Assembly (NCBI GenBank): GCA_038229915.1
Contig: JBBRNY010000004.1
Location: 1-52,642, forward strand
DNA length: 52,642 nt
Direction: 5' to 3'
Source of the DNA: Candidatus Kapaibacterium sp.
GTDB lineage: Bacteria > Bacteroidota > Ignavibacteria > Palsa-1295
Every line of letters starts with the position of its first letter. Within the stretch, counting starts at the first letter, position 1. The position numbers were made by a program, and so were the translations under genes. Below the pieces are notes generated by a model. That model ran no database searches, was not told the origin of the DNA, and saw only the letters and a program-made list of their open reading frames with translations. This document shows, in pieces, positions 11,695 through 39,596 of this stretch.

Positions 11695-11722
11695 CTTAAA
11701 TTTACATCCTATCAATCGTGGC

Positions 11723-13570
11723 TTACGCCTCGTCCATCTGTGCCTTTTTCTTGTTTTGGCGGAAGCGGACGCTTGGGTCGAGTTCTTTTTTGCGGAATCG
11801 AGTTGATTCCGGCGTGATCTCGAGAAGATCATCATCATCAAGCCACTCGATCTGCTGTTCGAGCGAAAGCGTACGAGGCGCGTCGAGCTGTAACGCTCCG
11901 TCCGAACCCGATGCACGCATATTCGTAAGATGCTTTTTCTTCGTGACATTGACGATCATTTCGCCTTCGCGGCTATTCTCGCCAACGATCATACCACGAT
12001 AGACTTTCGTACCAGGTGCGACAAAGAATACGGCGCGCTCCTGCAAGTTTTCCATTGCATAGCCGGTCGTTTCTCCGTCTTCGAGTGAGACCAGCGAACC
12101 ACGCGAACGTGTGCTGATAGCACCTTTGTATAATTCGTAATCGTAGAATAATTGATTCAGAAGTCCTGTGCCGCGAGTCATTGTCATAAACTCACCGCGG
12201 AAACCGATCATACCACGTGAAGGGACATGATACTCGATCTGCGACTGACCGTTTACGGTAGCCATATTGACCATCTGTCCTTTGCGATGACCAAGTGCTT
12301 CGATCACCGGACCGACATATTCTTCCGGTACATCCACAACAACTTGCTCAACAGGCTCCATCAGATCCCCGTCAACTTCTTGCATGATCACTTCCGGCTT
12401 GCTGACCGAAAATTCATAACCTTCGCGGCGCATGGTCTCGATCAAGATAGCAAGCTGGAGCTCGCCACGAGCTGCAACCTTAAAGGTATCAGGCGAAACG
12501 TCTTCGACACGGATAGAAATATTTTTGCGGAGTTCGCGGATCAAACGCTCACGAAGATGTCGTGAGGTAACGAATTTTCCTTCACGACCAGCAAATGGTG
12601 AGTCATTGACCGAAAAATTCATCGAGATCGTTGGCTCATCAACATTGATGATCGGCAACGGATCAGGTGCGGTAGGATCGGCAAGCGTCTCGCCGATGTG
12701 CACGTCTTCGAGACCTGCGATCTGTACGATCTCGCCGGCGCCGGCTTCTTCGATCTCAACACGTTTCAAACCTTCGAAAGCGAAGAGCTTCGAGACTTTT
12801 GCCTTCTCGAATGTGCCATCGTGCTTGATGCGAGTGATCCAATCGCCCGGATGGATACGACCACGGAAGATACGCCCTACAGCCAAACGACCGAGATAGT
12901 CTGACCAATCGACGTTGGCGACGAGCATCTGATACGGAGCATCAAGTTCGCCTGGTGGTGGTGGTACGTGCTCGATGATGGTATCAAAGAGCGGCTTGAG
13001 GCTTGTGCCTTCTTCGGCTAAAGTCTTTTGTGCGATACCGAATTTACCGATCGCATAAATGACCGGAAATTCAAGTTGCTCATAAGCAGCACCGAGCGAC
13101 ATAAATAGCTCGAACACTTCGTCGAGCACTTCTTCGGCGCGTGCATCTTTACGATCGATCTTATTGATAACGACGATCGGCTTCAGATGGAGTTGTAAGC
13201 TCTTTTTGAGCACGAACTTCGTCTGAGGCAAACAGCCTTCGGCTGCATCCACGAGAAGAACTACACCATCGACCATTTTGAGGATACGCTCGACCTCACC
13301 ACCGAAATCGGCGTGGCCCGGGGTATCAACAATGTTCAGCTTGGTGCCTTCCCAATGGATACTGGTATTTTTCGCCATAATGGTAATTCCCTTCTCTCGT
13401 TCGAGATCGTTGGAATCCATTACTCGGTCTACCATGTGCTCATTCGAGCGGAACGTGCCGCTTTGGCGCAACATCTGATCGACGAGCGTGGTTTTGCCGT
13501 GATCGACGTGCGCGATGATCGCTACGTTGCGAATATCTTGTCTTAGGTGGTCGGTATGCTTTTCTGCCAT
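11723..13570 (-). CDS. typA: Translational GTPase TypA/BipA
   Basis: Motifs RNVAIIAHVDHGKTTLVD, EREKGITI, DTPGHADFGGEVER, NKID, RGELQL and KHLTNMRASG. Confidence 0.98.
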   Translation of the reverse strand: MAEKHTDHLRQDIRNVAIIAHVDHGKTTLVDQMLRQSGTFRSNEHMVDRVMDSNDLEREKGITIMAKNTSIHWEGTKLNIVDTPGHADFGGEVERILKMVDGVVLLVDAAEGCLPQTKFVLKKSLQLHLKPIVVINKIDRKDARAEEVLDEVFELFMSLGAAYEQLEFPVIYAIGKFGIAQKTLAEEGTSLKPLFDTIIEHVPPPPGELDAPYQMLVANVDWSDYLGRLAVGRIFRGRIHPGDWITRIKHDGTFEKAKVSKLFAFEGLKRVEIEEAGAGEIVQIAGLEDVHIGETLADPTAPDPLPIINVDEPTISMNFSVNDSPFAGREGKFVTSRHLRERLIRELRKNISIRVEDVSPDTFKVAARGELQLAILIETMRREGYEFSVSKPEVIMQEVDGDLMEPVEQVVVDVPEEYVGPVIEALGHRKGQMVNMATVNGQSQIEYHVPSRGMIGFRGEFMTMTRGTGLLNQLFYDYELYKGAISTRSRGSLVSLEDGETTGYAMENLQERAVFFVAPGTKVYRGMIVGENSREGEMIVNVTKKKHLTNMRASGSDGALQLDAPRTLSLEQQIEWLDDDDLLEITPESTRFRKKELDPSVRFRQNKKKAQMDEA

Positions 13571-13701: not shown

Positions 13702-13760
13702 ATATTCTATAAGTGCAAACTTCCCCCGTGCGCATTCATTCATCAATCGACTCTCGAATA

Positions 13761-15689
13761 ATGTCTCATATCTACAAGACCGCTGTTTTTCTATTGTTGT
13801 GTTATCTTTGTATTAATACTAAGGCAAATGCAGCAACTTCCGACCATTTCCGGTCTTCGGAAGTCGTATATCAGTCCCCTCCCAATGGGGATCGGTACGT
13901 GCTTCCTCATTCAACAGTGATCTTTCGTGTTACAAAGTCATTCCTTTCTCGCAATCCTATCTCCTCATTTCAAATAAACGTGATCGGCACAACTTCGGGA
14001 TTGCACACTGGTATATTCGTCATCAGTGATGATGGTGAGACGGTGATATTCAAACCATCAACTCCATTTGCATTCGATGAAGATGTTCATATATCACTCT
14101 CGATCAATAATGCAGAGGAGATCAAACTTCTCGATGCCTTCAGCTTTCATACTACAAAACTCTCTTCGGTTCAACAACAGCTTCTGCTGGCGCAACTCAA
14201 TCAACAAGAACAAAGGGAATACCGAGAATTTATGCAAAATGGAAATAGCGATCAAATTTCTTCATCCAAATTTTCTCTCCTTGCCCTCCCAACTGACTTC
14301 CCGAATCTCAAGATTATTACGAACACGACGCCATCGCCAGGCAAATTTTATTTTGGCACGTTGAATTTTAATCCCGCAAAACCGCCTGATACAGTACATA
14401 CCTATTTGATGACATTCCAAAACGATGGGCAGGTACATTATTACAAACAATCAACAGCGCCGACGATCGATTACAAGTATCAAAGGGAGTCAAATGTTTT
14501 TAGTTATTTTTTCGCAACCGGCACACTTGGTGCTGGGGCTTACATTGGGAAGTATATCACCACTGATCTTGACCACAACATTCTCGATAGTTTTGCTTGC
14601 GGTAATGGCTATCCTACGGATGGTCACGACTTTATGATCTTGCCCAACAACCACGTTCTCATCGGTAGCTACGATGCCCAGACCGTTGATATGACCAAAG
14701 TCGTCACCGACCCAAACGCCAAAACAAATGCTACGGTATTCGGAACCGTCATTCAAGAGCTTGATCAGAATAAGAATGTTGTCTTCGAATGGAAAAGCTG
14801 GGATCACTTTAAGATCACCGACCATGCTGCTGATATTGCTGATACGAGCAAGCTTATTGACTACTCACATTGGAACAGCCTTAAGCAAGATGCCGATGGA
14901 AATATTCTTCTATCGTCACGAAATATGGATGAGATAACAAAAATAAATCGGACGACCGGTGATATCATGTGGCGCCTCGGTGGAAAAAACAATCAGTTTA
15001 CTATTACTGGGGATACCGAAAAAGTCTTTATCTCACATCAACATGATGCCGAGCGAATTCCGAATGGTCACATGACCGTATGGGATAACGGTAATGCTCA
15101 TAAGCCGCCCTACTCAAGAGCAATGGAGTTTACGATAAACGAGACAGCAAAGACGGTTAACAAAGTGTGGCAATTTCGTCACCCATTGAATCGTTTTACG
15201 TTTGCCGCAGGTAACGCTCAGCGATTAGCAAATGGGAACACCGTTATCGGTTGGGGCATTGTTCAAGATACGATTCTCCCTGCAGTCACCGAAGTTGACC
15301 CGAACGGAAATATCGTCTTCGAAGCCAAACTCCCACTGCTGAACATTAGTTATCGTGCATTCAAATTCGATCTTGCTGACAAGAGCGATGTGAAAAAGAT
15401 AAATTCATCATTGCTCATTCCCTCACTATCATTATTCCCGAACCCTGCTTCGAGCGAGACTACGGTTGAAGTATATATTAATAATGCCCCAGCTACAGTC
15501 GGAGCCATTGTAATGACAGAGCTATTTGATGTTTTGGGACGGAAACTCACTTCGACATCAAGCTATTTCGATGGTTCGGTCACTTATTCAAATGAGATCA
15601 ACACCACCGCACTTCAAACTGGAAGTTACTATGTCAAAGTCAGCTTCGGTGATGTGGTGACGACCAAATTGCTTCAGGTCCGCCAATAA
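13761..15689 (+). CDS. Aryl-sulfate sulfotransferase (ASST family) with N-terminal Ig-like domain and T9SS CTD, paralog 1
   Basis: Signal peptide from MSHIYK (start moved to 13761). ASST motifs DGHDF, DYSHWNS, SSRN, HQHDA, WDNGN, GNAQRLANGNTVIGWG, SYRAFK. FPNP...DVLGR CTD. Confidence 0.88.
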   Translation: MSHIYKTAVFLLLCYLCINTKANAATSDHFRSSEVVYQSPPNGDRYVLPHSTVIFRVTKSFLSRNPISSFQINVIGTTSGLHTGIFVISDDGETVIFKPSTPFAFDEDVHISLSINNAEEIKLLDAFSFHTTKLSSVQQQLLLAQLNQQEQREYREFMQNGNSDQISSSKFSLLALPTDFPNLKIITNTTPSPGKFYFGTLNFNPAKPPDTVHTYLMTFQNDGQVHYYKQSTAPTIDYKYQRESNVFSYFFATGTLGAGAYIGKYITTDLDHNILDSFACGNGYPTDGHDFMILPNNHVLIGSYDAQTVDMTKVVTDPNAKTNATVFGTVIQELDQNKNVVFEWKSWDHFKITDHAADIADTSKLIDYSHWNSLKQDADGNILLSSRNMDEITKINRTTGDIMWRLGGKNNQFTITGDTEKVFISHQHDAERIPNGHMTVWDNGNAHKPPYSRAMEFTINETAKTVNKVWQFRHPLNRFTFAAGNAQRLANGNTVIGWGIVQDTILPAVTEVDPNGNIVFEAKLPLLNISYRAFKFDLADKSDVKKINSSLLIPSLSLFPNPASSETTVEVYINNAPATVGAIVMTELFDVLGRKLTSTSSYFDGSVTYSNEINTTALQTGSYYVKVSFGDVVTTKLLQVRQ

Positions 15690-15826: not shown

Positions 15827-17761
15827 TTGATTATGTTTAAGTCCACTCTTATTGTTGTTTTAAATGTGATGCTCTGCTTTTCAATATTTGAAACAGCCGG
15901 AGCAACTTCTACTTCTTTTCGTTCACCTGAGGTGGTGTACCAATCACCCAACAATGGGGACGACTACGTTCTCGAGCAAGCAAAATTTATTGTCCGTTTC
16001 AAAAAGTTTTTTCTACAAACCCATCCGATTACATCCTTTCGTGCAGAAATCCTCGGGAGCAGATCAGGCGCACAACAAGCAACGATCCATCTGAGTGATG
16101 ACGGGGAAACCGTAATCATTACCCCTGAGCATGAATTCGAATTAGCCGAAGATGTTCACGCCAGAATATATTCCAGATCGACGGAAGAAAATATTCTCTT
16201 GAATGAATTCTCATTTCATACTACGAAACTGAGTTTTGCACAAAGATCAGCCGCCGCAAATACTCTTTACGACAAAGAGCAGGCCGAAGCACGTCAGCAT
16301 CAAAACAACAACATAAGCGCCAAGCCCTTTCCGATACTCAATCCACTTGCAAATAAATTTCCGGACCCGATCATTACATTCAACACCAAGCCATCAACTG
16401 GCAGGTTTTTTCTTGCGGCAATAAACTTTAATGTTGCAGAGCCACCTCCGGCACCCCCACCGGTTAATACGGCAATGATCTTTGAAAATTGGGGTGCAAA
16501 TTACTATTTCCAACAAACCCCGGCATTTGCTTCAATGGGGGATTTAAAAGTCCAACCATTTCACAATTCTATTACCTACTTCCAAAGAATTGCCGGCGGA
16601 GACCAATCAAAAGGCATCTCATTCTGCATCTATTATGAGCTTGATGCGAATTATAAGTTGATCGACAGCTTCCGGTGTGGCAATGGGTACCCCACAGATG
16701 CACATGATTTTCAGATATTAAGTAACAACCATTCGTTGGTCGAAAGTTACGATGCACAATTCGTAAATATGCAGACCTTAACAGGCGACCCGAATGCTGA
16801 TACGGCGGCGACTGTTTTTGGCGCGATCGTGCAAGAACTTGATTCAAATAAAAATGTAATATTCCAGTGGCGCAGTTGGGATCATTTTCTTATCACCGAT
16901 TGTACCAATGATAATCCACTAACGGCTCCATCGATCGACTACGTGCATCTAAATTCAGTTGAACAAGATCATGATGGGAATATCATTATTTCCTCGCGTC
17001 ACATGGAAGAAGTCACAAAGATCAACCGCACGACCGGAGAAATAATGTGGCGCTTTGGCGGCAAACACAATCAGATCACCGTTGAGAATGATACGTTGCC
17101 ATTTTCGCATCAACATGACGCAAGACGCTTACCCAACGGGCACATCACTCTCTTTGATAATGGTAATTTGCATATCCCTCCTTTCACAAGGGTTTTAGAA
17201 TATTCCCTCGACGAGCAAACAAAACAAGCCAATCTTGTCTGGAGCTATCAAGATACGATCAACGGAAATATTCTTTATTCGTATGCTGCAGGAAATGTCC
17301 AACGCCTTCCGAATGGAAACACGGTCATTGGCTGGGGGATACAAAATGATCCTGTTGTGACCGAAATCACTTCAGATGGCACAAAAGTGTTTGAAGCAAG
17401 CTTCCCATTTAATTTTGATAGTTATCGAGCATTCAAATTTCCTTGGAAAACAGGCGTGGGTTTGCTGGGTGTAAAAGATGCCGAACCTACAATTCCTAAT
17501 ATCAGTAATTCTAAAATATCAGTATTCCCAAATCCAGCATCAACAAATGCAACGATAGCATTTACTATCGGAAGCCCGTCAAACGTTTCTTTTGAGGTAT
17601 GCGATGTCTTAGGGAGGGTTCTCGCCACCCAATCGCAATATTTCTCTATGGGTGGCGATTACTCGGCTAACTTAAGTCTCGGCTCGCTACCTACCGGCAC
17701 CTATTATATCAAAGTAATGATCGGTGGAATTATCAAAACCGAGAAACTAATAGTTCGATAA
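15827..17761 (+). CDS. Aryl-sulfate sulfotransferase (ASST family) with Ig-like domain and T9SS CTD, paralog 2
   Basis: Motifs DAHDF, DYVHLNS, SSRH, HQHDA, FDNGN, GNVQRLPNGNTVIGWG, SYRAFK; FPNP...DVLGR...GTYY CTD. The start may be the ATG at 15833. Confidence 0.88.
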   Translation: MIMFKSTLIVVLNVMLCFSIFETAGATSTSFRSPEVVYQSPNNGDDYVLEQAKFIVRFKKFFLQTHPITSFRAEILGSRSGAQQATIHLSDDGETVIITPEHEFELAEDVHARIYSRSTEENILLNEFSFHTTKLSFAQRSAAANTLYDKEQAEARQHQNNNISAKPFPILNPLANKFPDPIITFNTKPSTGRFFLAAINFNVAEPPPAPPPVNTAMIFENWGANYYFQQTPAFASMGDLKVQPFHNSITYFQRIAGGDQSKGISFCIYYELDANYKLIDSFRCGNGYPTDAHDFQILSNNHSLVESYDAQFVNMQTLTGDPNADTAATVFGAIVQELDSNKNVIFQWRSWDHFLITDCTNDNPLTAPSIDYVHLNSVEQDHDGNIIISSRHMEEVTKINRTTGEIMWRFGGKHNQITVENDTLPFSHQHDARRLPNGHITLFDNGNLHIPPFTRVLEYSLDEQTKQANLVWSYQDTINGNILYSYAAGNVQRLPNGNTVIGWGIQNDPVVTEITSDGTKVFEASFPFNFDSYRAFKFPWKTGVGLLGVKDAEPTIPNISNSKISVFPNPASTNATIAFTIGSPSNVSFEVCDVLGRVLATQSQYFSMGGDYSANLSLGSLPTGTYYIKVMIGGIIKTEKLIVR

Positions 17762-25135: not shown

Positions 25136-25720
25136 TTAATATAGTTCTGGAAATAATTTACGCTCGGTGCATTCGATAGCGATGTGAATTACTTTGATAT
25201 GTAATTCTTGGATACGGTCGGTGGTCTTGCCGGGCGCGATGATCGCAACGTCGCAAAGCTCTTTCATCTTACCACCATCTTTACCAAGTAAGCCGACAAC
25301 TTTCATACCTTTGTTACGAGCCGTCTCTGCTGCAAGTAGAATGTTTTTACTATTACCTGAAGTCGTGATCCCAACAAATACATCTCCGGATTCACCAAAA
25401 GCTTCGACCATTCTCTGAAAGACAAATTCAAAACCATAGTCATTGGATGTACAGCTCATGTGTGACGGATCGGCGAAGGCAATAGCCGGAAGAGGCTTGC
25501 GATCCTTGCGATAGCGCCCTGTCCATTCCTCAGCAAAGTGCATTGCATCACAATGGCTTCCGCCGTTACCGGCACTATAGACTTTTTTGCCAGTCGTGAA
25601 TGCCGTTTCGAGAATGTTTACGAACTCGTTGATCTTCCCAAGCGACTCATCGCTCGAAAGGAATTCGTGAACTGCATGTTCTGCTTCGAGCAGTGATGCT
25701 TTGATGTGTTGGATACTCAC
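25136..25720 (-). CDS. gmhA: D-sedoheptulose-7-phosphate isomerase
   Basis: GNGGSHCDAMHFAEE.TGRYR, SC.SNDYG, TSGNSKN and DRIQELHIKVIH match E. coli-type GmhA. Confidence 0.92.
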   Translation of the reverse strand: MSIQHIKASLLEAEHAVHEFLSSDESLGKINEFVNILETAFTTGKKVYSAGNGGSHCDAMHFAEEWTGRYRKDRKPLPAIAFADPSHMSCTSNDYGFEFVFQRMVEAFGESGDVFVGITTSGNSKNILLAAETARNKGMKVVGLLGKDGGKMKELCDVAIIAPGKTTDRIQELHIKVIHIAIECTERKLFPELY

Positions 25721-29772: not shown

Positions 29773-31125
29773 TTGATCTACCTTTTCTACATCTTTACTG
29801 GGTTGATTCTATCTGTGCTAGGATGGTACTATCGGTACCGTTTTATTTCATTCTGCAGGAATGAAACCACTGCAGATATGGGCTTTTTCGAGCTCGAAGG
29901 ATATTCCAATAAGCCTTCATACACTGCGGGGGAATCACTCGAACTCTTCGTGCACTCTACTTTCAAAGATACTTACTACTCGATAAGGTCAATGAATGGA
30001 GACAAAGAAATTCTTGCAAGTGATGATTCGACTATCGGCATTCAAGATCAAACACATTCTGATAATCAATCGGTGGAAGGATGTCATTGGAAACTCACAA
30101 AAAGAATAGACTTGCCGAAAGATATTATTCAAGGCTATTATCAGATCGTCATATCTTCAGATCAAGCGAAGAAAACATTCTCGATACCTTTTATTGTCTC
30201 ATCTGATACAAAAGCAAAGATCATTATTCTTGCTCCTGTTTCAACATGGAATTCATATAATTCGTGGGGCGGCAGATCGCTTTATCAGAATAAATATGAA
30301 AATAAAACGGTGTATAAAGCAAGCCTCTTACGCCCGAACACAGCATTTCAACTGAATCACTCTATTAAGACTGAAGCAAATATCACTGACTGGTTTGTAA
30401 ATAACTATGATTCAGTCGCTGTCTATCCTGACTTTTACCTTGAATCAAAACCTGAGTTATTCTCTGAGTGTGCGCTTATTATCTTGGCGTATCATTGTGA
30501 ATATGTGAGTAGATCAATGTATGACGAGCTTCAACATATTATCACAAAAGGAGCATCGATGATCTCGCTTGGTGCTAATCAACTGTATTGGGTGATACAA
30601 TGGAATGATGAGCATACCCAAATGGAATGCCGGAAGGATCTTACGATGTTCGACAACTCATTCAACTATGGAGGGCTTTGGAAACATCATTTCAGAAAAC
30701 AAGAAGCATTATGCGGTTCGAGATATACGGGTTCGGGAATGCACACATTCGCACCATACACCGTCACCAGCGCTGACCATTGGCTCTTCAATAATACAAA
30801 TGTCAAGAATGGAGATCTGTTCGGGGTGAATGGCATTTCGCAAAGGCCTATCTCCGGCGCCGAAACAGACAAGCATTCATCTGCGTCAAGTAGCATCGAG
30901 ATCGTCGCACATGGGTTGAATTGTGACAATGAATCACAAGGCACAATTTACAATAGTGACAGATCAATATGGAATGGCGAAGGTGGTGCGGATCTCTTAC
31001 TAAAAACTTTGCCAAATGGCAACGCCGTACTTTCAACAGGGTCTATCGAAAGCGGAGCAGGCTTGGGTTACGATGAAGTATTTACTGCTATAGTGAAAAA
31101 TTTTATTGAGCGTTATGTTGCTTAA
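29773..31125 (+). CDS. N,N-dimethylformamidase beta-subunit-like (DUF6605) protein with N-terminal TM anchor
   Basis: Motifs EGYS..PSY.AGE.L, STWNSYNSWGGRSLY, RP, HCEYVS, GAN.LYW and GAETD. Confidence 0.8.
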   Translation: MIYLFYIFTGLILSVLGWYYRYRFISFCRNETTADMGFFELEGYSNKPSYTAGESLELFVHSTFKDTYYSIRSMNGDKEILASDDSTIGIQDQTHSDNQSVEGCHWKLTKRIDLPKDIIQGYYQIVISSDQAKKTFSIPFIVSSDTKAKIIILAPVSTWNSYNSWGGRSLYQNKYENKTVYKASLLRPNTAFQLNHSIKTEANITDWFVNNYDSVAVYPDFYLESKPELFSECALIILAYHCEYVSRSMYDELQHIITKGASMISLGANQLYWVIQWNDEHTQMECRKDLTMFDNSFNYGGLWKHHFRKQEALCGSRYTGSGMHTFAPYTVTSADHWLFNNTNVKNGDLFGVNGISQRPISGAETDKHSSASSSIEIVAHGLNCDNESQGTIYNSDRSIWNGEGGADLLLKTLPNGNAVLSTGSIESGAGLGYDEVFTAIVKNFIERYVA

Positions 31126-32204
31126 GACAATGTCTTAATAGCATTCATTACCGTATCAATTTCAATATCTCTGATGCACATAAAGTGCTCATCCGGATCT
31201 ATTCTATAGCAAACAAGTGCTTTTGGAGAATAAATAAAACAGGGGCGACAGTCGATTCCGGTTTGCACAATTTCATATCTTGTCTTCCATGGATGAACGT
31301 AGGTCTCATTCGTGGGTCCAAAAATTGCTACTGTTGGCAATTGCAACGCTCCGGCAATATGCATGAGCGCCGAATCATTTGACACAAAAAGAGTAGTGCG
31401 CTTCATAATGGCGATCGAGTCCATAATTGATTTCGTACGCACTTCTATGACAGCATCTCCGGCGATCCGAATGATCATTTCATTGGCTTCGGTATCATCA
31501 GGGCCGCCAAAAAGCAAAACAACTGCCCCACTTTCCTTCTTTAATCTTTTCGCAAGACCGGCAAATTTTTCCGGAGCCCAGCGGCGCTTGATATGATTTT
31601 TGAACAGCGCTGTACCGGCATGAAAGCCAATGATCTGAGGTGCACCTTCAAGATGATGCTCACGAATCCAGTTGTCAGCAAAGTCGATATTACTTTGACT
31701 GAGGTGTAGTTCAAGTCTCGGGAGCGAATCTTCGTGCAATTGTGGCTTTATTCCAAGCAATGAAATGAGGTGGACGTTTTCTTCCACACAATGCAGCGCA
31801 TCATTCTCTGCGACGGTGTCAGAATTGAGCCAATTCAGATTTTGCCAATCGCGACGTTTATATCGCACACCAAGTCTTTTTGCAGCCCCAAGTAGGAGTG
31901 CAAAAATATTATATTCTCTTCTATTCTGCGGATAAATATTTATCGAAACATCAAATGCAAGCCCCCTCAAATGCAAGAGGAATAGCAACCCCTCAAAGGT
32001 GTTACTATGAATAAAATCAAAATAGTGAACAGTATTGACTAACGGATTTGAACGAAAAAGATCTCGAGTTGCGGCGAACATCACCAGCACATGAATATCT
32101 GCCTCCGGCTTTGCTTCACGAAGCAAGCGAAGCATTGGTGTAGCCAACAGTGCATCGCCAATTCCCGGCAATGCGATGATCAGGATCTTCTCAGGCTTGC
32201 TCAC
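31122..32204 (-). CDS. Glycosyltransferase family 9 (heptosyltransferase-like)
   Basis: Motifs GIGDALLATP, KRRWAPEKF, SNDSALMHIAGA and AIFGPT. Start moved to the GTG at 32204. Confidence 0.92.
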   Translation of the reverse strand: MSKPEKILIIALPGIGDALLATPMLRLLREAKPEADIHVLVMFAATRDLFRSNPLVNTVHYFDFIHSNTFEGLLFLLHLRGLAFDVSINIYPQNRREYNIFALLLGAAKRLGVRYKRRDWQNLNWLNSDTVAENDALHCVEENVHLISLLGIKPQLHEDSLPRLELHLSQSNIDFADNWIREHHLEGAPQIIGFHAGTALFKNHIKRRWAPEKFAGLAKRLKKESGAVVLLFGGPDDTEANEMIIRIAGDAVIEVRTKSIMDSIAIMKRTTLFVSNDSALMHIAGALQLPTVAIFGPTNETYVHPWKTRYEIVQTGIDCRPCFIYSPKALVCYRIDPDEHFMCIRDIEIDTVMNAIKTLS

Positions 32205-34470
32205 GCTTTTTTGGAAGACTGAAGAACACCAACCCCAAAACCGTGGCGCCGAGCGTGATAAGACTAATGAGCGAACCAGTGTGAAATGCCGACGACTCAT
32301 ATTTCAAAACAACCGTATGCTCACCTTTAGGAATTTCTACTGCACGAAGCGCAGTGAATGCACGGTAAAGTTTTGTCTCTTTGCCATCAATATAGGCATG
32401 CCACGCTGGGTAATAGATCTCTGAAAAGAATAACATTCCATTCTCTGAAGTTTTTACCTTCGTTTCTATTTCATCGGTTTCGTAGCGTGAGACAGTCGCG
32501 ACAGAAGCAGCGTCAACATTCGTCAGTTGAAGTGACGGTTGTTCTTCGAGCAGCATTACATTCCTAAAATCAAATGACGAGTCAGTTCGCAGTAATGTCT
32601 TCGCCTCTTCATCAGGCTTGACAACTGTCTTGTAATACATCTTTACTCTTGGCAAGTATGAAGAACGCTGACCAAAACCTGTGCCATTAGAATTGGTCAT
32701 AATTGACCATTTAATATTTAACAGATCGGCGGTGATCTCGGGATTAGTGCATTGTGGCGCATTCCGTTGCAACACCAATGGATTGTATCCTTCAAGCAAC
32801 TGGATCCTATCGTATGCACCTTGATTACGTTTCAAGAGCATTCCATTCGCGCCACGAATTCTCGCACGCGAAAGTTCTTTCGATTGATCTTGTTTCAGCA
32901 TATCAACAAGCTGTGGTTGCTCCCGAAATGCCTGGCGCGGGTCTAGGGTTGTGGCGTTCAGTCCTGAGCCATAGGTAAATAATTCGATCATCGTGATAGC
33001 GATCGCGGCGGTCGCTAATCCAATACCATTGATCTTTTTGAAGGCTATCAACAATCCGATGACGAGGGTCGCAAGCACAGGAAACGCGGCTAAGCTTGTA
33101 GCCCAAGAAATTGCCTCGGCCGCTTCAGGCGGCGCACTAGCCATAAACGACTGCGGAGAAAACATTTTCATCACTCCCATTATCCACACAAGCGTTACGA
33201 CACCTAATATACCATAGAGCGCTTTTTTAGTTGACTCCGATATTCCATTCTTTAGAATGGTCGCAAGCCCAACGCCTCCGAGTGCAGTCATTGAAAACGA
33301 AAAGATCATCATCATTCTCGCAGGCGTGCGAAGTTTGTCGAATAGCGGCAGAGAAAAGAATATTTTATATAATGGGAAGTGATCGCCAAGGGCGAATAAC
33401 AACGCGAAGACACTCATCACAGCAAAGAACGATACATACTTCTTTTTCCAACTTCCGAAAGCGGCAACCACAGCCAGTACCAAAGGCATAATGCCGATAT
33501 AACACATCGTCTCCCACGACAAATAAAAAGCACCGTTCCAATATGGTACTTTTGCTTCACGCATTGCGTCGGTTACACCAAAAAGTCGGGGTAGTATCAG
33601 TGTTAGTAGATGCCCGAATGTCAGCGAGCCTTCGACTGAGTTTTGGAATGTGATCGTATCACGGCGTGAAAGCGAAGCAAGTTCTTGCGCTGGTAAGAAC
33701 TGTATAGCAAATATTCCGACAGCGATCACCACCGGAACAAGCATTCTTATAACAACGAACGCATTTACAACCCTATCTTCTTTATTTCGTAAGCGATAGA
33801 CCAATTCATACACGGCAAGTAGCGCTAAAAAGAAAGTGAGGAACAGAGTTGTTTGTGGATGTCCGGCAAGGTACATTACCCCGAGCAAGAGACCCGCTCC
33901 GAGCGAGTACTTCCAGGAATCGGTGCCTTTTAAAAAGAGCAGTACTACCCATGGAAATATCGCTAATTGATAGACGATCATTTGATGCATCGTCTGCCCG
34001 GTCATAAAGCCGCATAATGAGAAAGCAATAGCCGCAAGCATAGCCGACCATTCATCGGTCTTAAAAATAGTACGAACCAACAAATACATTCCGACCGCAG
34101 CAACCAAATAATGCAAGACGATAAACCATTGCATCACGATAGGCGAAAGATGCCCGTCGGAGACAAATAACGCCTGCACCATATTCATCGGATACCAAAA
34201 CGCAACCTGAATATCCGCCATAAATGGCATACCGCAAAACACATAAGGATTCCAGCCCGGCAGATGCCCAGAGGCGAGACTACTGGTAGCAAGTGTCCTA
34301 AACGGGAATTCCTGTTCGACAAAATCTTCCCAAAGAAATTTTCCGCCAAAGAGCAACGGATAGTAAAAAATAACAACGACGACGGCAAGTATCGCAATGA
34401 CCACGCCAAGTGAGAGGCGCGGCAATGGTGATGCCGGTAAAGACTTTGATGGTGATGACGTTTTTGCCAT
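32191..34470 (-). CDS. YfhO family (GT-C fold) membrane protein
   Basis: Motifs PGWNPYVFCGMPFMAD, LAGHPQ, LRTPAR and FSEIYYPAWHAYIDG...GEHTV; many TM segments. Confidence 0.9.
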   Translation of the reverse strand: MAKTSSPSKSLPASPLPRLSLGVVIAILAVVVVIFYYPLLFGGKFLWEDFVEQEFPFRTLATSSLASGHLPGWNPYVFCGMPFMADIQVAFWYPMNMVQALFVSDGHLSPIVMQWFIVLHYLVAAVGMYLLVRTIFKTDEWSAMLAAIAFSLCGFMTGQTMHQMIVYQLAIFPWVVLLFLKGTDSWKYSLGAGLLLGVMYLAGHPQTTLFLTFFLALLAVYELVYRLRNKEDRVVNAFVVIRMLVPVVIAVGIFAIQFLPAQELASLSRRDTITFQNSVEGSLTFGHLLTLILPRLFGVTDAMREAKVPYWNGAFYLSWETMCYIGIMPLVLAVVAAFGSWKKKYVSFFAVMSVFALLFALGDHFPLYKIFFSLPLFDKLRTPARMMMIFSFSMTALGGVGLATILKNGISESTKKALYGILGVVTLVWIMGVMKMFSPQSFMASAPPEAAEAISWATSLAAFPVLATLVIGLLIAFKKINGIGLATAAIAITMIELFTYGSGLNATTLDPRQAFREQPQLVDMLKQDQSKELSRARIRGANGMLLKRNQGAYDRIQLLEGYNPLVLQRNAPQCTNPEITADLLNIKWSIMTNSNGTGFGQRSSYLPRVKMYYKTVVKPDEEAKTLLRTDSSFDFRNVMLLEEQPSLQLTNVDAASVATVSRYETDEIETKVKTSENGMLFFSEIYYPAWHAYIDGKETKLYRAFTALRAVEIPKGEHTVVLKYESSAFHTGSLISLITLGATVLGLVFFSLPKKREQA

Positions 34471-34533
34471 ACGAGAAAGATCGTTTGAAAGTACGAAATT
34501 ACGAATTGAATACGCGTCTCACATCAAGACCGT

Positions 34534-35256
34534 TTATTGATGCAGTTTCCGAATGCGCAACAATTCAAAAAACATCTTTGATGAATCGCTTAATGCTCCG
34601 ACGGTTGTCCGCTCGTCATTATACCATTCTATCGCAATTTCTTTTATAGTATATCCCAGCTTCTTAGCAATAAAAAGGATATCAACATCGAATGAGAAGC
34701 CCATGACTTTTTGCTCAGCGAATATCTTCTCAGCAGCTTCAGCTCGAAAACCCTTAAAGCCGCACTGTGTATCCTTTATACCACGAAGGACAAGTATCTG
34801 AACAAGAAAATTAAAGAACTTGCCCATCGCTTCGCGGTACCATGGTTGATGGACTTTGACCAATGCGCCACCGTTAAGTGCGCGACTCCCGATCACGACA
34901 TCATAGCCACCTTTTTCCATCACATCAAGAATTTTCTCAATTTCGTAGATCGGTGTTGATAGATCGGCATCGGTAAAAATTCGTATCTCACCCGTCGCTT
35001 CGAGCATCCCGGCTCTTACCGCCGCTCCCTTACCTTGATTCACACCAAGTTCGATAAGTCGATAGGAGACATTTGGCGACTGTAGCGATAGAATATGTTT
35101 TTTTACAACTTCAACAGTATTATCCGGCGAGCCATCATCGCAAACCAGAACTTCGCTCGTATAACTTACTGATGATAAATATTTATCGATCGTATCAAGT
35201 GACGGACCGATACGTTCGGCTTCGCGGAAAGCTGGTATGATGATCGATAGGTACAA
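34534..35256 (-). CDS. GT2 polyprenyl-phosphate glycosyltransferase (Dol-P-Glc synthase/ALG5-like)
   Basis: Motifs SIIIPAF.E, DDGSPD, NQGKGAAVRAG, FTDADLSTP, DTQCGFK and FDVD. Confidence 0.9.
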   Translation of the reverse strand: MYLSIIIPAFREAERIGPSLDTIDKYLSSVSYTSEVLVCDDGSPDNTVEVVKKHILSLQSPNVSYRLIELGVNQGKGAAVRAGMLEATGEIRIFTDADLSTPIYEIEKILDVMEKGGYDVVIGSRALNGGALVKVHQPWYREAMGKFFNFLVQILVLRGIKDTQCGFKGFRAEAAEKIFAEQKVMGFSFDVDILFIAKKLGYTIKEIAIEWYNDERTTVGALSDSSKMFFELLRIRKLHQ

Positions 35257-35284
35257 AACGGTGTTGTGATGTAACGTTTACGTA

Positions 35285-35311
35285 ACAAAAGGGCGACCAA
35301 AGTGCCGCCCT
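35285..35311 (-). terminator. Probable terminator after the DUF2723 gene
   Basis: Minus strand reads AGGGCGGC-actttg-GTCGCCCT-TTTGTT. Confidence 0.6.
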
Positions 35312-35332
35312 AATGATCGAATAGTATGTTCT

Positions 35333-38296
35333 TTATTTTTTTGCAGTGTCTTTTGTCGGTGCCACAACCGTTCCATCACCCATTTGCTGATGCAATGAAT
35401 CGACGTGCCCTCTGAGACGATTGAATTCTTCTTCATATTCGCTACCGGTAAGGCTTTGACCAAAGGTCGCGAATAATTTATCATAGAGTTCAATGGCTTT
35501 TTTCTTGTCGCCTTTTTTCTCTGCTGCCATTGCCGAGATCTGCATATATCGAAGTTCGATATTTCCGCGGAATGACTGATCGGTCACCGTCTCACGCATT
35601 TTTGTAATGACTTGCAACGCTTTATCCATCTCCCCTACACCGATCAACGTTTCGGCATAAGTCAATTGCGTCATTATCTCGCGTTGCGATAGTGTACCCG
35701 TGAGCGTACTCTGATATTCTTTCTCTAACTTGCCAAGTGCAAAGTGAGCAAATTTCTCTGCCTTCTTTGTGTCGCCAGCTTTACGATAGAGCTGAGAAAT
35801 TTCTGCCGCCGTATTCCCCACATAGGCAACACGTTCTGGTGGAACATTCTCATCAAGAATATTCAGTGCTTTGATCGCCTGATCTGGTTTGCCGGTTGAC
35901 AAATAATACGCCGCTAATAATTCATACGCGTGTTGGTATGAATAGAACGGTGCATCGTTTGTACGGTCAGCATTGCTCCAACGCGCTTCCGGATCTTTGA
36001 ATGTGTTGATCAAGAAACCACGGTGATACTCTTTGTAAGGAGTTTTCACAAGATTGAAACAGCTTTCATAAAAAGCTTTTTCATTCACCGGTGGGATCGA
36101 GCGTGATGCACGCGCGATCGGGGTGACACGCTGTGACATACCTTCCCATACGAGATATGGGTTGAGCCCTATTTGATAATTACCAGGCACAGCCGATGCG
36201 AAATAGATCGGGCGGACGTTGATATTCCCTTCGACGATCGAACGAACGATCTGATCGGCAACGGTATAAACAAAGCCATCTTGACGCTGGAATTCGCCAC
36301 GATATTTCCAGACCATAGAACCGCCACCTGCATTGGGATCATCACTGAATTTTTTCATTGTTTCAGCAGTAACCGCAACAGTGACATTCTTTGGTTGATC
36401 GACATAGCCACGAACACCATTTTCTGACTCGTCCTCGCCTTTCAACAATTGATCGCTAAATCCCGGAAGATCAACTTTCTTTCCGGCACCTTCCCAAACA
36501 TCTTTTTTGAGCTGTTGGATATACCAACTCATATTGGCAAGCGAAAGATTGACGATACGAACATCACGGCGAATGCCATATACATCCTGCGCACACCATA
36601 ATGGGAATGTATCATTGTCACCGGCGGTGAATAAGATCGCATTCGGTTCACAGCTCTGCAATGAATTATAAGCATACTCGAGCGGGATGTTATTATGCGA
36701 ACGAGAGTATTCATGCCACTTCGAAGTTTCGGCAAACGATTTACCGCTAACCATTCCTGCAAGCCCTGCAAGTTGATTAAGTGGTACTAAAACCACAAGC
36801 GCCACAAGGACACCACCGAGCATTGCAATATTACCATCGCCTATCGGAACTGGCAACGGCTCATTCTTTTCAGGGTCGGCATTCGGATCTTTGAGTTTCC
36901 GTGCTCTTAGCCATTCCATAATTCCGGTCGCCCCTATTCCTACCCACATAGCGTAGAAATAAAATGCACCGACATAGAAATAGTCACGCTCACGCGGTTG
37001 CGGGTCCTGCTGGTTCTGATACCAAGCCGTCAGCCACCCAAAGAAAATAAACGCCGCAAGAATAGTGAGTGCACGTTTCGGATCGCGTCTGAAATGCCAG
37101 AACAATCCGAAGAGTCCTAAGATGAACGGCAATCCCCATGTTTTTGACCAATCGGTGCCTGCGTCTTGATCTTGACTCGCACGTCCGATAAAATTCCACG
37201 CTAAGTAGCGGTTGTACATGTGGTCGGTCTGGTAACGCCAGAAGAAATCCCAGTTGCCAGTGTAATTTTTGAACGTAGGTCCTTCTTGTCCGCTTTCATC
37301 CCCAACCTGACGTGGGAACGGAGGGCGGTAGCCATACTGGTCACGATTGATAAACTCTGTAAGGGTTTTGAAATTATCAGCATGATGCTGGTTCATCGGC
37401 GGCTCTTGGGCAGCGCGAACGATGATCATATAATAAGTAGAGTATCCAAGGAATATTAATACCGAAGCCCACAAGCTGAGATTAAGTGTTGCTTTTTTAT
37501 TCTTATGGCTCCAATAAATGGCATAGAATGCCGCGAGGAATAATAGGACGGTCGCACCAGCTACTCCGCCGCCTTTACCAAGCCATTCAACAATATAAGA
37601 GAGAACGAGTTTGTAAGAAAGAAAGAACGCAAGCACACTCGCCACAACCATACCAAGCCATGAAGTGATCGTCACCGTATTGCGGCGTCTGTAATAGATC
37701 AACATAAAGCATGGGAAGATCGTAAGCAATGCCAATTGATGCACGCCCATTGAAAGCCCGATCACATAGGCAGTCAGCAATAAATATTTTTCACTGTGTT
37801 CTTCTTCGGCGTGGTCATACCAGACCAACATGATCCAAGGTATCAGCGCCATAAAGAGCGAACCGAAAGCATATACTTCAGACTCAAGAGCATTGAACCA
37901 GAAGCTATCGGTATAGGTATAGCACAATGCCGCAATAAGAGCACCACCGTACGTTGTGAGCGCATCTGCCATTGTCGTTGGCGCACCACGCCAGAGCTTG
38001 ATCAAACGGGCAACCGTGAGATACAAGATCATGATCGTTACTGCCGAACTCAGTACCGAGAAAAAGTTATATCGTGCGACCAAGTCGGTATAGGTCGGGA
38101 GCATCATTGCAAAACGACCAATGATCGTCCAAAGTGGTGAACCTGGGGGATGAGGCACCTGTAAAGCAAAAGCCGCCGATGCGAATTCTCCGCAATCCCA
38201 GAATGGGATCGAGGGCTGCATTGTGTACATATACGTAAACAATGCCGCAAAAAAACTTAAACCGGCAAAGAGATAATGAACGCGTTTAAATTCCAT
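35333..38296 (-). CDS. DUF2723 / TMEM260-like GT-C membrane protein
   Basis: Motifs FWDCGEF, VPHPPGSP, SFWFNALESEVY, PRERDYFY and FTAGDNDTFPLW; helical TPR-like C-terminus. Confidence 0.9.
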   Translation of the reverse strand: MEFKRVHYLFAGLSFFAALFTYMYTMQPSIPFWDCGEFASAAFALQVPHPPGSPLWTIIGRFAMMLPTYTDLVARYNFFSVLSSAVTIMILYLTVARLIKLWRGAPTTMADALTTYGGALIAALCYTYTDSFWFNALESEVYAFGSLFMALIPWIMLVWYDHAEEEHSEKYLLLTAYVIGLSMGVHQLALLTIFPCFMLIYYRRRNTVTITSWLGMVVASVLAFFLSYKLVLSYIVEWLGKGGGVAGATVLLFLAAFYAIYWSHKNKKATLNLSLWASVLIFLGYSTYYMIIVRAAQEPPMNQHHADNFKTLTEFINRDQYGYRPPFPRQVGDESGQEGPTFKNYTGNWDFFWRYQTDHMYNRYLAWNFIGRASQDQDAGTDWSKTWGLPFILGLFGLFWHFRRDPKRALTILAAFIFFGWLTAWYQNQQDPQPRERDYFYVGAFYFYAMWVGIGATGIMEWLRARKLKDPNADPEKNEPLPVPIGDGNIAMLGGVLVALVVLVPLNQLAGLAGMVSGKSFAETSKWHEYSRSHNNIPLEYAYNSLQSCEPNAILFTAGDNDTFPLWCAQDVYGIRRDVRIVNLSLANMSWYIQQLKKDVWEGAGKKVDLPGFSDQLLKGEDESENGVRGYVDQPKNVTVAVTAETMKKFSDDPNAGGGSMVWKYRGEFQRQDGFVYTVADQIVRSIVEGNINVRPIYFASAVPGNYQIGLNPYLVWEGMSQRVTPIARASRSIPPVNEKAFYESCFNLVKTPYKEYHRGFLINTFKDPEARWSNADRTNDAPFYSYQHAYELLAAYYLSTGKPDQAIKALNILDENVPPERVAYVGNTAAEISQLYRKAGDTKKAEKFAHFALGKLEKEYQSTLTGTLSQREIMTQLTYAETLIGVGEMDKALQVITKMRETVTDQSFRGNIELRYMQISAMAAEKKGDKKKAIELYDKLFATFGQSLTGSEYEEEFNRLRGHVDSLHQQMGDGTVVAPTKDTAKK

Positions 38297-38507: not shown

Positions 38508-39596
38508 TCAGTAGATAGACTTCAAAATCGTAGGGCGGAAGGTAGTACTTAAACGTCCATCACGGGAGATTGAATTGCTACCATAAACTATGCTATTCTC
38601 ATCAGGCGACCATTCAGGGAATAGACAGATTGCAGAAATTTTTGGTTCATAGGGGTCTGTATCCAAGACAGTCTTTAGCAAAGACACTCTATCAATTATC
38701 CCAACTTCGCTGTCTTCATAAGCCGTTTGACCAAATGAAGACGGAGGATATGAACTATACAATATCTTTGATCCGTCATGATTATAACGTAGGAAAAGAC
38801 ACCAACGACTATCGTTAACTGTAAAAGTAACTGGAAGTGTATCCTGTTTTTTTGTTGTAAAATTAAATTCGAACACAATAGGTGATCTGTTGTAGCCGCC
38901 AGAGGGAATAAGCAGGCGAGAATGGTCTGGGTGAATATCAAAACCATTTCGTAATTCTCGGGGACCGAGGTCGGAAATATGCCGCAATAATAATTGTTTA
39001 GAATTTTTACTTCGTACATATAAATAATACCCGGCATCGGAGGGATTGACATTTGATGGGGAATAACTCCCGTACGAATAATATAATATAGAGTCATCAC
39101 TTAGATAGCGCGCGGTTGAGATATTGTTTGAAGTGTCTAACAATTGTGTGATTAGTAGTGATGCAAGATCAATGAGCTGAAGGCCTCCGGAATTATTTCT
39201 ATTGTATTTAACCGTAAGCAACTGAGTTTTATCGGGATTAAAGCTCATCGACAAAATGCCAGCAATAATTGGACTGGTATTCGTATTATCAAAAAGGAGA
39301 ACTGAATCATGGATCAATTTGAAGCTATCGTCAAAATCATAATATCGAAGAGGATTCACAGAATAAATTCTGTGCCCTTTCCATAGATTCGTATGAAAGA
39401 CACCTTCCTCCAAAGCTGTGCCATTTTGTGTAAAATGATAATCTGAAGAAAATACTACCCATTTTGATGGTGCGGTCGAAACGGGTACGGTCGGCGAATT
39501 ACAACTTACTAACACACTGACTATTGGAATAAAGGTCAGTAGAAAAATCACCCGAGTCCCAAAATTTACTACAAATTTTTTCATTGATAATACCAT
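38508..39596 (-). CDS. Hypothetical lipoprotein with TolB/PD40-like beta-propeller
   Basis: Lipobox LVSC and repeats FNPDKTQL, IHPDHSRL, YNHDGSKILY, WSPDENSIVY. AT-rich. The start could be MKKF at 39584. Confidence 0.7.
   Translation of the reverse strand: MVLSMKKFVVNFGTRVIFLLTFIPIVSVLVSCNSPTVPVSTAPSKWVVFSSDYHFTQNGTALEEGVFHTNLWKGHRIYSVNPLRYYDFDDSFKLIHDSVLLFDNTNTSPIIAGILSMSFNPDKTQLLTVKYNRNNSGGLQLIDLASLLITQLLDTSNNISTARYLSDDSILYYSYGSYSPSNVNPSDAGYYLYVRSKNSKQLLLRHISDLGPRELRNGFDIHPDHSRLLIPSGGYNRSPIVFEFNFTTKKQDTLPVTFTVNDSRWCLFLRYNHDGSKILYSSYPPSSFGQTAYEDSEVGIIDRVSLLKTVLDTDPYEPKISAICLFPEWSPDENSIVYGSNSISRDGRLSTTFRPTILKSIY

Follow-up and report, generated by a model that had tools for sequence, protein, structure and literature searches.

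The contig JBBRNY010000004.1 of Candidatus Kapaibacterium sp. (52,642 nucleotides (nt), referred to at its full length as the window) carries at positions 31122-38296 four long open reading frames (ORFs), every one on the minus strand in the ORF listing of the window, which encode a TMEM260-like membrane glycosyltransferase of the DUF2723 family, a family 2 glycosyltransferase (GT2), a YfhO-like membrane protein and a family 9 glycosyltransferase (GT9). The most likely function of this locus is periplasmic glycosylation fed by sugars on undecaprenyl phosphate (Und-P), with the TMEM260-like enzyme O-glycosylating exported proteins. Glycosylation at the periplasmic face of the inner membrane, supplied by polyprenyl-phosphate sugars, is the best explanation of the locus as a whole, and we regard it in its entirety as evenly balanced between right and wrong. 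Its parts differ in strength: that the genes form a periplasmic Und-P-sugar module is very probable, that the TMEM260-like enzyme acts on protein is somewhat better than an even proposition, and that it is the general initiating enzyme of Bacteroidota O-glycosylation is a tentative proposal.

Many exported proteins of Bacteroidota are glycosylated at a defined sequon. The core flippase, oligosaccharyltransferase (OTase) and ligase of Bacteroidota O-glycosylation are called undiscovered in the accessible part of a review (PMC12871550), which suggests a search for homologues of eukaryotic O-mannosylation; the statement in the first-pass annotation of this DNA that the initiating transferase is not firmly assigned agrees with it. 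As for TMEM260, the accessible portion of PMC10214176 remarks only on 'distant homologs in bacteria', and a search of full-text literature, with subscription journals and supplements outside its range, returned no paper that connects either DUF2723 or TMEM260 with the O-glycosylation system of Bacteroidota. The TMEM260-like enzyme is a phylum-wide relative, catalytically intact as judged by its residues, of a proven protein O-mannosyltransferase, and in the lineage of the window it lies beside a lipid-sugar synthase. As a candidate for the phylum's missing initiating transferase it is credible, though unproven. Were it that enzyme, the pathway would resemble eukaryotic O-mannosylation and not en-bloc transfer by an OTase, the sequon excess described below would mean that the system extends to Kapaibacteria and Ignavibacteria and has shaped hundreds of their proteins, and the surface glycoproteins of Bacteroidota from the gut and the environment would become open to manipulation.

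The TMEM260-like enzyme and its relatives

The gene at 35333..38296 (minus strand) encodes a protein of 987 amino acids (aa) that matches Pfam PF11028 at residues 34-207 (190.5 bits against a cut-off of 24.2, E 2.9e-56) and, in addition, the repeat families TPR_14 and TPR_12. Its architecture comprises an N-terminal membrane core, a periplasmic beta/alpha domain at about residues 550-725, a TPR-like helical tail at about 784-972 and a short end tail. In the AlphaFold (AF2) model, with a predicted local distance difference test score (pLDDT) of 77.5 and a predicted template modelling score (pTM) of 0.75, strands and helices occupy residues 554-724 and helical repeats residues 784-972. The top Foldseek matches of this model are PglB, STT3, AglB, ArnT, Pmt4 and TPR proteins, with Pmt1/2 also among the matches; the TMEM260 structures (9RQL and partners) are absent from the matches to this library of entries released up to 2026-04-08.

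When a profile built from 23 relatives was searched with HMMER against 177,635 distinct PDB sequences, the sole match was human TMEM260 (9rql_A, E 5.3e-23). The alignment pairs D52 of the human enzyme with D34 (FWDCGEF), H67 with H49 (HPPG) and D441 with D560 (GDNDTFPLW), the last within a stretch that is weak by itself (13.9 bits, i-Evalue 0.084); the DCGE motif comprises D34-C35-G36-E37. According to the accessible part of a preprint on the human enzyme (10.64898/2026.03.17.711096), D52A, H67 and D441A variants are inactive, D441 is the proposed base, the GT-C core together with luminal Rossmann-like and TPR domains holds an extended peptide, and the donor is dolichyl-phosphate-mannose (Dol-P-Man). 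The aligned D34, H49 and D560, as well as E37, G52, R294, R435, R437, D438, P565 and W567, are identical in 42/42 full-length proteins; this set covers Kapaibacteria and Ignavibacteria as well as 19 genomes from other classes, one per family. Judged from these alignments, the DUF2723 protein retains the catalytic residues of human TMEM260.

Human TMEM260 (PF11028; 9RQL/9RQM/9RQN), an O-mannosyltransferase of the endoplasmic reticulum that acts on the IPT domains of plexins, cMET and RON, resembles the window protein in its N-terminal GT-C core, in its donor-binding Asp and His, which lie 15 residues apart in both, in a catalytic Asp placed in the luminal or periplasmic beta/alpha domain, and in its TPR tail. 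The window protein differs in being bacterial and about 260 residues longer; its donor would be an undecaprenyl- and not a dolichyl-phosphate sugar, and its clients are possibly general. A second likeness is to the protein O-mannosylation of yeast and Actinobacteria by Dpm1/Ppm1 and PMT (GT39), in which polyprenyl-P-mannose made by a GT2 supplies a GT-C enzyme that adds a single sugar to Ser/Thr of proteins during their translocation; among the structural matches of the window protein are Pmt4 and Pmt1/2, although its family is a different one (GT117-like).

The proposed mechanism would begin with a soluble GT2 that makes undecaprenyl-phosphate-hexose at the cytoplasmic face, after which a flippase would turn the donor over. 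The TMEM260-like enzyme would bind this donor via D34 and H49, its TPR and beta/alpha domains would hold an extended, newly exported polypeptide, and it would move one sugar to Ser/Thr with D560 as base, like human TMEM260. The YfhO paralogue may carry out a further periplasmic transfer, from that Und-P-sugar or a different one, onto the growing glycan, other proteins or a glycolipid, and GT9 would be a cytoplasmic nucleotide-sugar transferase, possibly ADP-heptose-dependent, with a conserved link to DUF2723. The TMEM260-like enzyme would be the best candidate for the missing starter of D-(S/T)-(A/I/L/V/M/T) O-glycosylation. In its strongest form, in which this GT-C enzyme starts the phylum-wide modification of that motif by transferring a single hexose from the Und-P donor of a Dpm1-like GT2 to unfolded exported proteins, the proposal is possible and falls a little short of an even chance.

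PF11028 is present in 400/401 Bacteroidota genomes that are at least 90% complete and in 180/180 genera; among 14 control genomes it was found in B. thetaiotaomicron alone. Genomes of other classes mostly hold one copy, those of the window's class one to five (mostly two). The host genome, an assembly of 2.7 Mb in 176 contigs that is 98.7% complete and in which the window is contig C4, has three PF11028 matches: besides the window copy, one on contig C82 that also matches PMT_2 and one on C10, a long-branch paralogue without several of the invariant residues. The closest named homologues come from metagenome bins of Candidatus Kapabacteria/Kapaibacterium and Ignavibacteria, and the host is accordingly an uncultured bacterium close to Kapaibacterium that counts among the Bacteroidota when the phylum is broadly drawn, outside the classical Bacteroidia in which O-glycosylation was described.

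A quick IQ-TREE analysis of 43 proteins groups the window copy with other Kapaibacterial copies in a clade that has tandem duplications of its own and is sister to an Ignavibacteriaceae protein (locus L039) inside the Ignavibacteria. Overall the tree topology tracks taxonomy, and because the window copy takes its place in such a tree, phylogeny indicates that its gene is a co-orthologue of the phylum-wide core gene. The Atlas assigns the automatic name glycosyltransferase family 117, with neighbours in Rhodothermota, Ignavibacteriota and Fidelibacterota, and PF11028 and PF28495 (TMEM260_2) occur in 100% of the members of this neighbourhood. The closest relative among the genome contigs (L005, 70% identity) is titled 'uncultured Alphaproteobacteria bacterium', a title that is probably a mislabel because L005 groups with Kapaibacterium loci in the tree.

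Sequon signature in exported proteins

The host proteome was represented by 2158 ORFs of at least 100 aa (longest non-overlapping), classed as 482 exported, 1060 cytoplasmic and 616 membrane proteins, and motif counts were compared with within-protein shuffles. In the exported set the motif D[ST][AILVMT] occurs 1339 times against 709 in the shuffles (ratio 1.89, z 28), and in the cytoplasmic set 992 times against 935 (ratio 1.06, z 2.3). Control motifs in the exported set give 0.79 for E[ST][AILVMT], 0.93 for N[ST][AILVMT], 1.12 for the reversed motif and 0.71 for D[ST] followed by any other residue. Counts above expectation are found in 313/482 exported and 431/1060 cytoplasmic proteins, and the exported ratio is 1.66 when the top 5% of proteins are left out. 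Resolved by third position, the ratios are 1.34 for A, 2.05 for I, 2.36 for L, 1.93 for V, 1.30 for M and 1.69 for T, with all other residues at or below 1.10 save C (1.77, n=26); this preference matches the published Bacteroidota sequon.

A similar excess is seen in the pooled Kapaibacteria and Ignavibacteria loci (268 against 153, ratio 1.75, z 9.5) and in the pooled loci of 20 other genomes (60 against 34, ratio 1.76, z 4.8), and the ratio is 0.95 in 31 proteins from 300 kb of E. coli (31 against 33). As indirect evidence, the signature speaks well for the importance of the sequon to the host organism; it is silent on which enzyme reads the sequon. The statistic also offers an inexpensive means of asking in which proteomes such a system has left its mark. 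The TMEM260-like protein itself contains two D-(S/T)-x sequons, at residues 966 and 983, in its C-terminal tail (about residues 948-987; window 35333-35460). A sequon falls within the last 40 residues in 17/42 DUF2723 proteins, and in 9/11 of the Kapaibacterial copies, at a density that is sevenfold higher there (1.25 per 100 aa) than elsewhere in these proteins (0.17).

The downstream genes and competing explanations

The GT2 gene (34534..35256, minus strand) encodes 240 aa from a TTG start and matches PF00535 (E 4.2e-28), with a DDGS motif at residues 40-43 and DAD, the DXD motif, at 96-98. Its best solved relative is the Dol-P-Man synthase of P. furiosus (5mlz, DPMS; E 1.3e-19), followed by ArnC (three structures; second-best, E 1.8e-13) and GtrB, and these three enzymes account for the top 7 of 12 solved relatives. 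In NCBIfam, PgfS, the Haloferax dolichyl-P-hexose transferase, ArnC, AglJ and PpgS score best, each far under its equivalog cut-off. Going by these relatives, the protein belongs to the polyprenyl-phosphate-sugar synthase class (Dpm1/DPMS, ArnC, GtrB, PgfS, PpgS). A hydrophobic stretch of 19 residues is found nowhere in the 240 aa, so there is no membrane anchor or interface helix. Eukaryotic Dpm1 is likewise a short soluble form, and the short NCBIfam profiles DPhHxTase_Halo and PpgS span 213-226 positions; since such short soluble forms exist, membrane helices are not universal among GT2 lipid-sugar synthases.

The YfhO-like gene (32191..34470, minus strand; 759 aa) matches PF09586 with 52.1 bits (cut-off 28.5, E 4.9e-14) over residues 659-736 only, that is 78 residues and positions 757-835 of an 835-position profile. 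The protein has about 12 hydrophobic segments and a C-terminal beta domain, gives weak NCBIfam matches to PgfM1/PgfM2 and has no solved relative by sequence search of the PDB. Its AF2 model (pLDDT 63.1) has AftA, STT3, ArnT and EmbC as top Foldseek matches (E 2e-4 to 1e-3, probability 1.00), and because the model matches AftA, STT3, ArnT and Emb proteins, the predicted structure has a GT-C fold. A GT2 lipid-sugar synthase that adjoins a YfhO-type GT-C enzyme, as here, is known from CsbB/GtcA/YfhO of Bacillus and Listeria and from PgfS/PgfM1/PgfM2 of Streptococcus mutans, and in the work behind the names PgfM1/PgfM2, YfhO-type enzymes are reported to glycosylate proteins in streptococci. PgfS and PgfM2/PgfM1 are the best NCBIfam rows of the two window proteins, yet the scores are 64.5 against 500 and 31.6 against 1500, and the host is Gram-negative. 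Both systems differ further in that only the C-terminal 78 residues of the window protein match the Pfam YfhO family and that no GtrA/GtcA flippase was found in the host genome.

The GT9 gene (31122..32204, minus strand; 360 aa) most likely starts at GTG 32204, as judged from its relatives: the longest ORF is 31122-32300 (392 aa), in which this GTG is codon 33, and the relatives are 352-373 aa long with alignments beginning at query residue 33-38. The start gives GT9 a 14-nt overlap with the YfhO stop codon. The protein, a heptosyltransferase-like enzyme of the GT-B type, matches PF01075 over most of its length (E 2.1e-27) and shares this family and the presence of ADP-heptose pathway genes in the genome with the lipopolysaccharide (LPS) heptosyltransferases WaaC/WaaF/WaaQ. 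It falls, however, under every NCBIfam equivalog cut-off (heptosyltransferase III 118.3 bits, cut-off 170.2; heptosyltransferase II 110.2, cut-off 134.6) and is one of eight PF01075 matches in the host genome. In its account of the genes the first-pass annotation has therefore held: four co-directional genes, all on the minus strand and with their families upheld by Pfam, encode two GT-C-type membrane proteins (by PF11028 and Foldseek, and by the GT-C matches of the YfhO-like model), a GT2 of the lipid-phosphate-sugar donor class with DPMS, ArnC and GtrB as solved relatives, and a GT9.

GT2, YfhO and GT9 are spaced as tightly as the genes of an operon, a packing that in more distant relatives takes in DUF2723 as well. 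Between DUF2723 and GT2 the window contains a G+C-rich hairpin followed by a T-run (35290..35311, minus strand; eight pairs, six of them G-C, then TTTTGTT when read from 35311 to 35290). A probable terminator had been proposed earlier at 35285-35311. L004 and L005, the closest two relatives, also have a G+C-rich hairpin in this position, in L005 with a different sequence; terminator-like sites in the region nevertheless number 12 against 8.2 in shuffles (standard deviation 2.6), which is no clear excess. It is absent from L006, L007 and L079, in which GT2, YfhO and GT9 touch or overlap and the DUF2723-GT2 gap is 13-19 nt. The hairpin is probably a partial terminator or a processing or stability element.

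The reading of the locus as a single protein-glycosylation machine has to be weighed against a series of observations that speak against it, many of which come from gene order in 79 related loci, 66 of them with at least 1.5 kb downstream of DUF2723. The more widely kept neighbour of DUF2723 is GT9, which lies within 600 nt downstream in 28/66 loci (Ignavibacteria, Kapaibacteria), and GT2 plus YfhO stand between the two only in six Kapaibacterial loci and in L039, of 79. In a YfhO tree the proteins of the cluster form a separate clade and the second copy of the genome (C111) falls in a phylum-wide YfhO-like clade; on this phylogeny the window YfhO and the phylum-wide one are paralogues, the former specific to the cluster. 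No glycan-donor gene was found beside DUF2723 in 20 genomes of other families. What directly follows the gene there is a carbohydrate esterase family 4 (CE4) deacetylase of about 203 aa in five (L083, L084, L085, L086, L090) and LpxA in two (L096, L098); a GT9 is nearby in two, and in some of these genomes the DUF2723 gene stands alone. GT2 and YfhO thus look like a lineage-specific insert within an older DUF2723-GT9 pair, and therefore the four genes are not one ancient machine. Because the two resemble a self-contained inserted pair of the CsbB/YfhO or PgfS/PgfM type, GT2 may serve YfhO only; a donor synthase of the right class does lie next door to DUF2723, as had been proposed, but within an insert and, in the lineage of the window, divided from DUF2723 by the hairpin. 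An explanation by two unrelated neighbouring units, in which GT2 and YfhO decorate a surface polymer or lipid (as CsbB/YfhO decorates teichoic acids and GtrB/GtrC the O-antigen) and GT2 does not feed DUF2723, draws on the rarity of the insert, the separate YfhO clade, the hairpin and the contact of GT2 and YfhO in L006. It is doubtful, if the least improbable of the alternatives, given that GT2 stays by DUF2723 in L005 without YfhO or GT9, that DUF2723 and GT2 are only 13-19 nt apart in L006, L007 and L079, and that an identical four-gene order recurs in the distant Ignavibacteriaceae locus L039 at 24-38% identity.

Two further explanations concern the acceptor and the clients of the TMEM260-like enzyme, and both appear unlikely. 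The enzyme could, like ArnT, have a glycolipid or a polysaccharide as its substrate (the LPS core, lipid A or some other glycan of the envelope), with GT9 building the same molecule from the cytoplasmic side. The DUF2723-GT9 pairing, the LpxA and GT9 neighbours in other families and ArnT among the structural matches would suit such a role, and so would GmhA, the HldE kinase domain and WaaA, which are present in the genome and fit LPS core work. With these ADP-heptose genes at hand GT9 may serve LPS, and a heptosyltransferase role for it is plausible; an LPS-directed role may thus apply to GT9 and, with less likelihood, to DUF2723. Adjacency to housekeeping envelope genes is weak evidence, however, and the invariance of the GDNDTFPLW block with D560 (the counterpart of the TMEM260 base D441, which lies beside the acceptor threonine), the TPR tail, which in TMEM260 clasps the peptide, and the protein-glycosylating enzymes PglB and STT3 as top structural matches all speak against such a role. 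The ArnC/ArnT lipid A system shares the combination of GT2 and GT-C, and ArnT is a fold match of both GT-C proteins of the window, but the window GT2 has no membrane helices and no ArnD-like deformylase was found. The CE4 neighbour in other classes was considered as an ArnD-like lipid-sugar deformylase and rejected, its best NCBIfam rows being PdaB, PgdA and NodB; these proteins are most like deacetylases of the peptidoglycan and NodB types.

Alternatively, the TMEM260-like enzyme could glycosylate narrow clients only, and the general system be started by a phylum-wide YfhO-like GT-C or a Wzy_C/PglL-type OTase. Human TMEM260 is client-specific, acting on IPT domains, in the accessible parts of PMC10214176 and 10.64898/2026.03.17.711096, and YfhO-type enzymes glycosylate streptococcal proteins according to the accessible part of 10.1101/2024.05.05.592596. 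YfhO-like proteins were found in 116/121 genomes (E<=0.001), 89 of them over the family cut-off, and are a serious rival or partner of DUF2723; yet five genomes are without a match and 32 lie below the cut-off. Wzy_C proteins (PglL/WaaL type) were found in 106 of 121 genomes that are at least 95% complete and missed in 15, two of which are single-contig. DUF2723 is the most universal of the three. The host genome itself has two Wzy_C, two YfhO-like and ten PMT_2 (ArnT-like) matches, and PMT_2 was not found in the B. thetaiotaomicron control.

The sequon excess, too, fails to follow DUF2723, a point in favour of a different starter enzyme. It is weak in G239 (102 against 90, ratio 1.14, z 1.3) and missing in G089, which has no Wzy_C match (15 against 17, ratio 0.86, 25 proteins), and in G121, which has no YfhO match (13 against 22, ratio 0.60, 23 proteins). 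Because all three genomes carry DUF2723, the excess is neither phylum-wide nor does it track this gene. G089 and G121, chosen to tell the candidate enzymes apart, do not discriminate between them. All of these ratios rely on crude ORF calling and a simple signal-peptide and hydropathy rule, and the spread between genomes may reflect biology or the crude signal-peptide rule. Other points bear on the enzyme and its donor. The donor-loop residues R264 and Y267 and R355 of transmembrane helix 10 (TMH10) of TMEM260 lie outside the sequence alignment; the DUF2723 proteins do have invariant arginines (R294, R435, R437). The catalytic loops of the DUF2723 model have pLDDT below 50, and a GtrA-type flippase was not found in the 98.7% complete host genome. 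In the accessible part of PMC12871550, finally, the prevailing model has a glycan assembled on a lipid carrier and then transferred, and not a single sugar. For the TMEM260-like enzyme as the initiating transferase there remain the catalytic residues, the near-universal occurrence of the gene and the sequon excess of the host.

Other genes of the window and related loci

In Melioribacteraceae-type loci, divergent GT2 genes upstream of DUF2723 were considered as donor synthases and rejected as TuaG/WcaA/EpsE-like; as these are not lipid-sugar synthases, such loci provide no conserved donor-synthase link. L039 encodes at 11720-13165 (plus strand) an AglJ/PpgS-like GT2 fused to a UbiG-like S-adenosylmethionine (SAM) methyltransferase domain; methylated sugars are typical of Bacteroidota O-glycans. 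Directly upstream of DUF2723 in the window, a 362-aa ORF (38508-39596, minus strand) begins like a lipoprotein, its hydrophobic N-terminal stretch closing with LVSC, and contains three sequons. It was rejected as a member of the cluster: it belongs to no Pfam or NCBIfam family, and tblastn against the loci of 79 relatives returned its own locus (L001) only. A scan for sigma-70-type promoters gave 20 sites against 18.9 expected and hence no signal.

Genes for heptose metabolism and other glycosyltransferases are found elsewhere in the window and the genome. A GmhA-type phosphoheptose isomerase (25136-25720, minus strand; TIGR00441, 216 bits, cut-off 209) is encoded inside an isc Fe-S operon, between the genes of a DnaJ-domain (HscB-like) and an Hsp70 (HscA-like) protein, an odd site for a heptose gene. 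On contig C1 (around 148713-152585), the gene of the HldE kinase, one for a Wzy_C protein and two of the PMT_2 genes lie within about 12 kb of each other.

The window also encodes proteins with type IX secretion system (T9SS) tails, including tandem arylsulfotransferase-like proteins with T9SS C-terminal sorting domains at 13713-15689 and 15827-17761 (plus strand). Between GT9 and the Rrf2-IscS genes lies a DMFA2_C-domain gene on the opposite strand (29773-31125, plus strand). In L006 and L010, Rrf2 and IscS follow directly after GT9 with no intervening DMFA2_C gene, and because GT9 there runs straight into Rrf2-IscS, the DMFA2_C gene looks inserted in the lineage of the window.

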